64,000 nt of DNA from Escherichia coli (GTDB lineage Bacteria; Pseudomonadota; Gammaproteobacteria; Enterobacterales; Enterobacteriaceae), in the NCBI RefSeq assembly GCF_048403405.1, contig NZ_CP183129.1; one strand, written 5' to 3'. The position numbers and the translations under genes are program-made. How positions within the stretch are numbered: position 1 is the first letter of the stretch; the number at the start of each line of letters is the position of its first letter. The notes below the pieces were generated by a model. That model saw only the letters and a list, made by a program, of their open reading frames with translations. It did not search any database and was not told the origin of the DNA. This document shows positions 57,487-58,943 of this stretch, piece by piece.

Positions 57487-57545
57487 GCTATGATTAGCCG
57501 CTATTTTTTTGTCCTGAATGATGTTTGACACTACCGAGGTGTACT

Positions 57546-58943
57546 ATTTTTACCCGAGTCGCTAATTTTTGCCGCAAGGTGCTAAGCCGCGAGGAAAGCG
57601 AGGCTGAACAGGCAGTCGCCCGTCCACAGGTGACGGTGATCCCGCGTGAGCAGCATGCTATTTCCCGCAAAGATATCAGTGAAAATGCCCTGAAGGTAAT
57701 GTACAGGCTCAATAAAGCGGGATACGAAGCCTGGCTGGTTGGCGGCGGCGTGCGCGACCTGTTACTTGGCAAAAAGCCGAAAGATTTTGACGTAACCACT
57801 AACGCCACGCCTGAACAGGTACGTAAACTGTTCCGTAACTGCCGCCTGGTGGGTCGCCGTTTCCGTCTGGCTCATGTGATGTTTGGCCCGGAGATTATCG
57901 AAGTTGCGACCTTCCGTGGACATCACGAAGGTAACGTCAGCGACCGCACGACCTCCCAACGCGGGCAAAACGGTATGTTGCTGCGCGACAACATTTTCGG
58001 CTCCATCGAAGAAGACGCCCAGCGCCGCGATTTCACTATCAACAGCCTGTATTACAGCGTAGCGGATTTTACCGTCCGTGATTACGTTGGCGGCATGAAG
58101 GATCTGAAAGACGGCGTTATCCGTCTGATTGGTAACCCGGAAACGCGCTACCGTGAAGATCCGGTACGGATGCTGCGCGCGGTACGTTTTGCCGCCAAAT
58201 TGGGTATGCGTATCAGTCCTGAAACCGCAGAACCGATCCCTCGCCTCGCTACCCTGCTGAACGATATTCCACCGGCACGTCTGTTTGAAGAATCTTTGAA
58301 ACTGCTGCAAGCGGGCTACGGTTACGAAACCTATAAGCTGCTGTGTGAATATCACCTGTTCCAGCCGCTGTTCCCGACCATTACCCGCTACTTCACGGAA
58401 AATGGCGACAGCCCGATGGAGCGGATCATTGAACAGGTGTTGAAGAATACCGATACGCGTATCCATAACGATATGCGCGTGAACCCGGCGTTCCTGTTTG
58501 CCGCCATGTTCTGGTACCCACTGCTGGAGACGGCACAGAAGATCGCCCAGGAAAGCGGCCTGACCTATCACGACGCTTTCGCGCTGGCGATGAACGACGT
58601 GCTGGACGAAGCCTGCCGTTCTCTGGCGATCCCGAAACGTCTGACGACGTTAACCCGCGATATCTGGCAGTTGCAGTTGCGTATGTCCCGACGTCAGGGT
58701 AAACGCGCCTGGAAACTGCTGGAGCATCCTAAGTTCCGTGCTGCTTATGACCTGTTGGCCTTGCGAGCTGAAGTTGAACGTAACGCTGAACTGCAGCGTC
58801 TTGTGAAATGGTGGGGGGAGTTCCAGGTTTCCGCGCCACCAGATCAAAAAGGGATGCTCAACGAGCTGGATGAAGAGCCGTCACCGCGTCGCCGTTCTCG
58901 TCGTCCACGCAAACGCGCACCGCGTCGTGAGGGTACCGCATGA
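57546..58943 (+). CDS. pcnB: Poly(A) polymerase I
   Basis: 465-aa product (M)[21 protein letters not shown]... beginning at an in-frame ATT codon (57546), the known non-canonical pcnB start; the track ORF begins at an upstream TTG. Confidence 0.9.

Follow-up and report, generated by a model that had tools for sequence, protein, structure and literature searches.

Conservation of the AUU start region of pcnB, the poly(A) polymerase I gene, in Escherichia coli and its relatives

The poly(A) tails that target bacterial RNAs for decay are synthesised by poly(A) polymerase I (PAP I), the product of pcnB, an enzyme that also controls the copy number of ColE1-type plasmids. The poly(A) polymerase gene was reportedly identified in a 1992 PNAS paper by Cao and Sarkar. 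Passages of later papers credit Binns and Masters (Mol Microbiol 44:1287, 2002) with the finding that pcnB initiates at AUU and is translationally limited, and according to passages of this kind AUU initiation is confirmed in E. coli for only two genes, infC and pcnB. In a paper from the Kushner laboratory (PMC3561954), the introduction gives the pcnB codon as UUG and the discussion as AUU, so TTG was at one time a serious candidate. Excerpts of the same paper put PAP I at ~30-50 molecules per cell, and overproduction of PAP I is described as toxic in excerpts of both PMC3561954 and PMC2939334. The infC gene, which encodes initiation factor IF3, is like pcnB in that its AUU start lies behind a Shine-Dalgarno sequence, its expression is limited by the weak codon, and the codon is conserved across many bacteria. 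In Enterococcus faecalis, a rare ATT start attenuates expression of ebpA, whose start had been wrongly annotated at a canonical codon further downstream (PMC4447247); as an unrelated gene from an unrelated organism, ebpA offers only an analogy to pcnB. Here we compare with these systems the pcnB start in a 64,000-nucleotide stretch of E. coli DNA (NCBI RefSeq assembly GCF_048403405.1, contig NZ_CP183129.1), referred to as the window and numbered from its first letter.

Anatomy of the pcnB locus

The gene order in the window is dksA, gluQRS, pcnB, folK, and the gluQ-pcnB-folK neighbourhood recurs at distant loci, those of Aeromonas and Vibrio among them. The predicted product scored 996.9 bits against the NCBIfam equivalog profile for PcnB (NF008634; cut-off, 702 bits) and carries the PolyA_pol head (PF01743; E-value, 1.7e-41), the RNA-binding domain (PF12627; 1.2e-20) and the arginine-rich C-terminus (PF12626; 3.3e-40), while residues 28-442 match the E. 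coli PAP I structures 3AQK-3AQN over the full length. The 701 bases from 57300 to 58000 were found in 5,424 of 5,426 complete E. coli genomes, with 100% identity to strain 118UI. In two E. coli records, of which one belongs to the identical strain, the RefSeq (PGAP) coding sequence of pcnB begins at the ATT at 57546 and encodes 465 aa (position 1747 of the RefSeq locus plus an offset of 55,799 gives 57546 in the window). The features of the region are as follows.

56590..57486, + strand: gluQRS (yadB), the upstream neighbour
57466..57494, + strand: promoter-like site (-35 TTCTCA, 17-nt spacer, -10 TATGAT; 9/12 match) straddling the gluQ stop codon
57519..57521, + strand: TGA, the in-frame stop that closes the pcnB frame on the 5' side (sequence)
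57525..57527, + strand: TTG, which opens the six-frame 472-codon ORF 57525..58943 (ORF list); judged not to be a functional start
57536..57541, + strand: Shine-Dalgarno sequence GAGGTG, which pairs with CACCUC of the 16S rRNA 3' end
57542..57545, + strand: spacer TACT, 4 nt, of constant length and variable sequence
57546..57548, + strand: ATT (AUU) initiation codon of pcnB (sequence, RefSeq, conservation, NCBIfam model, literature)
57546..58943, + strand: pcnB coding sequence, poly(A) polymerase I, 465 aa plus stop (RefSeq, NCBIfam, Pfam, PDB)
57549..57581, + strand: codons 2-12, with synonymous sites frozen in Enterobacteriaceae (codon entropy, 80 species)
57579..57581, + strand: in-frame GTG (Val12), taken as the start by many gene callers, giving 454 aa
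57699..57701, + strand: ATG (Met52), the first in frame and codon 52 from the ATT; candidate start of a conditional short isoform
58940..59419, + strand: folK, the downstream neighbour, whose ATG overlaps the pcnB stop (ATGA)

The ATT at 57546 sits seven codons after the TTG and is followed by TTT ACC CGA GTC GCT AAT TTT TGC CGC AAG. Scanning of the frame past the ATT yielded the start-like codons GTG 57579, GTG 57630, GTG 57636 and ATG 57699; the first in-frame ATG thus lies only at 57699, and there is none near the pcnB 5' end. A first-pass annotation, made from the DNA letters and an ORF list, had claimed that the gene lacks a nearby in-frame ATG, that the six-frame ORF opens at TTG 57525 and that the known N-terminus begins at ATT 57546, and the in-frame listing of start codons bore this out with the coordinates exact. 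The ORF list also opens dksA at GTG 56050 and gluQ at ATG 56560, where the RefSeq starts are 56068 and 56590. As the openings listed for dksA, gluQ and pcnB all differ from the RefSeq starts, an ORF opening is no evidence of a start. At the other end of the gene, the ATGA overlap of the pcnB stop with the folK start (58940-58943) suggests translational coupling of the two genes; across 71 species, folK begins with ATG in 38 and with GTG in 30.

In the leader, the promoter-like site is probably the published major promoter pB, which is located upstream of the ATT in excerpts of PMC2939334, and the TATGATTAGCCGCTATTTTTTTG block at this site is kept in most genera. The synonymous diversity of gluQ is lowest at its 3' end (57451-57494; 10-codon window from codon 288), coinciding with the -35/-10 pair. 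An out-of-frame mini-ORF (57518-57565; ATG-ATG...TAA) overlaps both the Shine-Dalgarno sequence and the ATT of pcnB. It was considered as a regulatory upstream ORF and rejected as probably non-functional: few genera besides Escherichia have its ATGs, and in other genera the ATG in the mini-ORF frame falls within the TATGAT -10 box.

The ribosome-binding region within and beyond the Enterobacteriaceae

To gauge the strength of the ribosome-binding signal, the 20 nt preceding each candidate start were paired with the 3' end of 16S rRNA, and the energy of the best duplex was taken. This anti-Shine-Dalgarno energy was -9.8 kcal/mol for ATT 57546, -4.0 kcal/mol for ATG 57699, -2.3 kcal/mol for TTG 57525 and -0.1 kcal/mol for GTG 57579; among background 20-mers of the window, 2.6% reached -9.5 kcal/mol or lower, and the mean was -3.56 kcal/mol. 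The start region was then aligned across the pcnB loci of 80 species of Enterobacteriaceae (87-99% protein identity), as the first-pass annotation had proposed. The ATT was present at the start position in all 80 species, GAGGTG stood 4 nt before it in every one, and the spacer kept its length of 4 nt throughout while occurring as ten different sequences. The arrangement GAGGTG, 4 nt, ATT is accompanied by no canonical start able to substitute for the ATT: between the upstream in-frame stop and the ATT, 43 of the 80 species have no ATG, GTG or TTG at all, in five of the 80 that stop lies no more than six codons from the ATT, and the next canonical codon on the 3' side (GTG 57579) sits within the invariant translated peptide. 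The ATT was also conserved beyond what is expected of a synonymous site. PcnB has 14 fully conserved isoleucine columns, and the start ATT is the sole codon-invariant one among them; the other 13 alternate between ATT and ATC.

Invariance in the nucleotide alignment sets in abruptly at GAGGTG. The leader that bears the TTG in E. coli contains indels that are not multiples of three, and the codon immediately before the ATT, if translated, would encode Thr, Asn, Ala, Pro or Ile beside an invariant peptide; the interval from TTG to ATT therefore evolves as non-coding DNA. The TTG itself was found seven codons before the ATT in 26 of the 80 species (Escherichia, most Citrobacter, and some Kosakonia and Phytobacter) and was absent from the remaining 54. 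In Salmonella (L022:1477-1479, L023:1477-1479), an in-frame ATG occupies the position of the E. coli TTG, seven codons before the ATT, in the context TAA-TGT-ATG, and no Shine-Dalgarno sequence was found before this ATG in either of the two loci.

Overall, we conclude with high confidence that pcnB translation starts at AUU 57546 behind GAGGUG and that this weak start limits PAP I. The claim of the first-pass annotation that ATT 57546 is the pcnB start was upheld by the RefSeq coding sequence, position 1 of NF008634, the ATT in 80 of 80 species and the duplex energy of -9.8 kcal/mol. Its further claim, that the locus matches the reported AUU-initiated and translationally limited pcnB, accords with what excerpts of the citing papers credit to Binns and Masters. 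The anatomy of the region, the strict conservation of the Shine-Dalgarno sequence, spacer length and ATT, and the non-coding evolution of the TTG-to-ATT interval are direct observations of the present analysis. The ATT start of pcnB as such is no new biology: it is already known, was established in 2002 and is placed correctly by RefSeq. Start-site ribosome profiling or N-terminal proteomics for pcnB was not found in the literature searched.

With initiation at the AUU, ribosomes would bind the pcnB mRNA through GAGGUG (57536-57541) and initiate 4 nt further 3', at AUU 57546, to make the 465-aa PAP I. The AUU would be an intrinsically poor start, decoded inefficiently by the initiator tRNA and discriminated against by IF3; with a good Shine-Dalgarno sequence joined to a poor AUU, PAP I synthesis would therefore be capped at a low level, and the resulting scarcity of PAP I would avoid the toxicity of overproduction. 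For pcnB in particular, the role of IF3 discrimination as the limiting step is inferred by analogy with infC. The TTG at 57525 would be simply the first start-like triplet past the in-frame TGA, within a non-coding leader. Since excess PAP I kills the cell, the weak AUU start would amount to a real dosage control.

Outside the set of 80 species, GAGGTG-N4-ATT-TTT was also found in Pantoea, in Plesiomonas, in Aeromonas (L083), in a reduced genome of 1.08 Mb (L084), where the ATT is the annotated pcnB start, and in a 56%-identical relative (L090). A 63%-identical relative (L089) has AAGGAG-N7-ATT together with TAG-ATG at -7, and a further locus (L088) has ATT at the homologous codon preceded by a weak Shine-Dalgarno sequence. 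In a 65%-identical relative (L087; 501-530), the homologous codon is ATC, in the context GAGGTG-TATT-ATC-TTT-AAT-CGA. This locus also has an ATG that overlaps the Shine-Dalgarno sequence straight after a TAA (TAA-ATGAGGTG), and its start may be AUC or one that has no Shine-Dalgarno sequence of its own. In a Vibrio locus (L086) and a Methylobacter-like locus (L085), pcnB starts with ATG or GTG. With ATT in Enterobacterales, Plesiomonas and Aeromonas, and ATG or GTG in the Vibrio and Methylobacter-like loci, the ATT start is therefore a feature that is old within Enterobacterales and the neighbouring groups and not universal in Gammaproteobacteria. This distribution fits the phylogenetic evidence for AUU in many Proteobacteria that an excerpt of PMC3561954 attributes to Binns and Masters.

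Gene-caller annotation and other candidate starts

The exact-sequence look-up recovered the protein of this strain from public contigs in four lengths. The 465-aa version (from the ATT) and the 472-aa version (from the TTG) were each found on at least 1,000 contigs, the 454-aa version (from GTG 57579) was likewise found on at least 1,000, with some entries labelled 'Poly(A) polymerase I precursor', and the 414-aa version (from ATG 57699) was found on three. When the ORF opened by the TTG was aligned with NF008634, positions 1-468 of the 469 in the profile matched residues 8-471 of the ORF, and residue 8 is the ATT codon; the seven-residue extension from the TTG falls outside the curated PcnB model. 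The statement in the first-pass annotation that automated callers mis-set this start held for naive callers, as the 472- and 454-aa versions show, and failed for PGAP/RefSeq, which starts at the ATT. Callers read through the pcnB start in Pantoea MPLSRCPIFTRV, Erwinia, Aeromonas and Salmonella MTLPRCAIFTRV, and elsewhere they picked a downstream codon; the Salmonella enterica PcnB (P0251) is deposited as MTLPRCAIFTRV. Codon 29 (57630-57632) is GTG in E. coli and ATG in 72 of the 80 species, so most other genera offer callers an early in-frame ATG. Several assemblies (L083, L086-L090) have pcnB split by the caller into two or three neighbouring pieces, such as 316 + 150 aa in Aeromonas or 183 + 284 aa in Vibrio. 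These fragmented calls probably reflect frameshifts from assembly errors, or pseudogenes, and they are enriched because the homology search used a short query. A gene that lacks a canonical start is thus called at three positions in public databases, with the result that its predicted N-terminus is altered, and the part of PcnB affected is a conserved basic peptide that is absent from the crystal structures.

Besides the AUU-initiated protein, a shorter isoform could be made under special conditions from ATG 57699 (Met52), off the internal sigma-S promoter pS1; we regard this as distinctly improbable. According to excerpts of PMC2939334, pS1, located downstream of the ATT, shows activity in vitro as well as in ppGpp-null cells, and anti-PAP I antibodies reveal two bands on western blots; the same excerpts state that pS1 is silent in wild-type cells, and the authors themselves call the isoform unproven. 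In the alignment, a second frozen synonymous block lies upstream of ATG 57699 and is consistent with such an internal promoter, whereas the Shine-Dalgarno signal before the ATG is weak (-4.0 kcal/mol) and the isoform would lose 51 residues, including 28-51 of the crystallised enzyme. This block covers 57642-57680 (codons 33-45), its codons 41-43 (CGC AAA GAT, 57666-57674) are invariant in the 80 species, and it may coincide with the published pS1. ATG 57699 is also the historical start of Liu and Parkinson, as discussed in an excerpt of PMC2939334.

Translation from TTG 57525 would yield 472 aa and make the ATT an ordinary internal isoleucine codon. The ORF opens at this TTG, its product is the version recovered from at least 1,000 contigs, the introduction of PMC3561954 names UUG as the initiation codon, and a start codon occupies the position in 28 of the 80 species (TTG in 26 and ATG in two Salmonella), with an ATG also in L089. 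The TTG lacks a Shine-Dalgarno sequence, however, its duplex energy being worse than the background mean; it is missing from 54 of the 80 species, and 43 of the 80 have no canonical upstream start of any kind; and the discussion of PMC3561954 names AUU. Were the ATT an internal isoleucine codon, moreover, ATC should replace it in some species, as happens at the other 13, and neither the frame-breaking indels and five amino acids at the codon before the ATT nor the position of the seven extra residues outside the curated model is what a translated extension would leave. We therefore hold this start to be highly improbable, although a minor TTG-initiated isoform in Escherichia and Citrobacter may exist, being compatible with the conservation. 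Still less credible is initiation at GTG 57579 (Val12) to give the 454 aa that many callers report, since this GTG, for all that it is kept at codon 12 in 80 of 80 Enterobacteriaceae and yields a product found on at least 1,000 contigs and in places named a precursor, has no Shine-Dalgarno sequence (-0.1 kcal/mol), is replaced by GTC in Pantoea, lies 11 codons inside the curated model and the RefSeq gene, and follows 11 codons whose peptide is invariant in the 80 species and persists unaltered through synonymous changes in Pantoea and Plesiomonas, which shows those codons to be translated; it was rejected as an alternative start.

Synonymous constraint in codons 1-12 and comparison with described systems

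With AUU 57546 as the start, the first codons of pcnB show a constraint that goes beyond the peptide they encode. The first 10-codon windows of the gene had a codon entropy of 0.15-0.21 bits across the 80 species, the lowest in the gene (median, 0.96; 5th percentile, 0.67). Of 284 conserved degenerate columns, 13 were codon-invariant, and seven of these 13 are codons 1, 2, 4, 5, 7, 9 and 12. The 5' ends of gluQ and folK showed no comparable synonymous freeze in the same comparison. Plesiomonas has the same N-terminal peptide with six of the frozen codons changed, its codons 3-9 reading ACA CGC GTA GCC AAT TTC TGT. In Enterobacteriaceae, a cis-acting RNA element not recognised so far and overlapping the AUU could lie behind the freeze of codons 1-12 (57546-57581), a tentative reading that we consider unlikely on balance. 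Such an element could be, for example, a hairpin pairing the Shine-Dalgarno sequence (57535-57541) with codons 2-4 and holding the AUU in its loop, or a binding site for a factor or sRNA. A 6-bp hairpin in which the Shine-Dalgarno sequence pairs with codons 2-4 was predicted by MFE folding and RNAalifold. All its paired positions are invariant, so no pair can covary. The hairpin as an occluder of the Shine-Dalgarno sequence was not supported, as the region is less stable than shuffled sequences (z = +1.27) and Plesiomonas keeps the peptide and breaks the pairing; within Enterobacteriaceae it may nevertheless form. An Rfam search of 57300-57900 gave no match at E <= 1. If the element were real, it would adjust the already weak initiation on top of what the start codon itself sets. 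Only in this freeze might the locus hold anything new.

In other respects the locus corresponds to what has been described. The pcnB of E. coli K-12 is the same gene, a K-12 derivative being 97.9% identical over the 701 bases (57300-58000), and it has the same ATT, the same Shine-Dalgarno sequence, the same gluQ-pcnB-folK neighbours and the same product length of 465 aa. Compared with other E. coli PcnB proteins, that of the present strain has a few substitutions, and nothing of substance differs. The difference from infC lies in the control of the weak codon and in its spread. Expression of infC is autoregulated, in that its own product, IF3, discriminates against the AUU, a feedback loop that pcnB lacks; any dependence of pcnB on IF3 would thus couple PAP I to the level of IF3 and not to that of PAP I. 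In addition, infC starts with AUU, AUC or AUA across nearly all bacteria, whereas the ATT of pcnB was seen only in Enterobacterales, Plesiomonas and Aeromonas.
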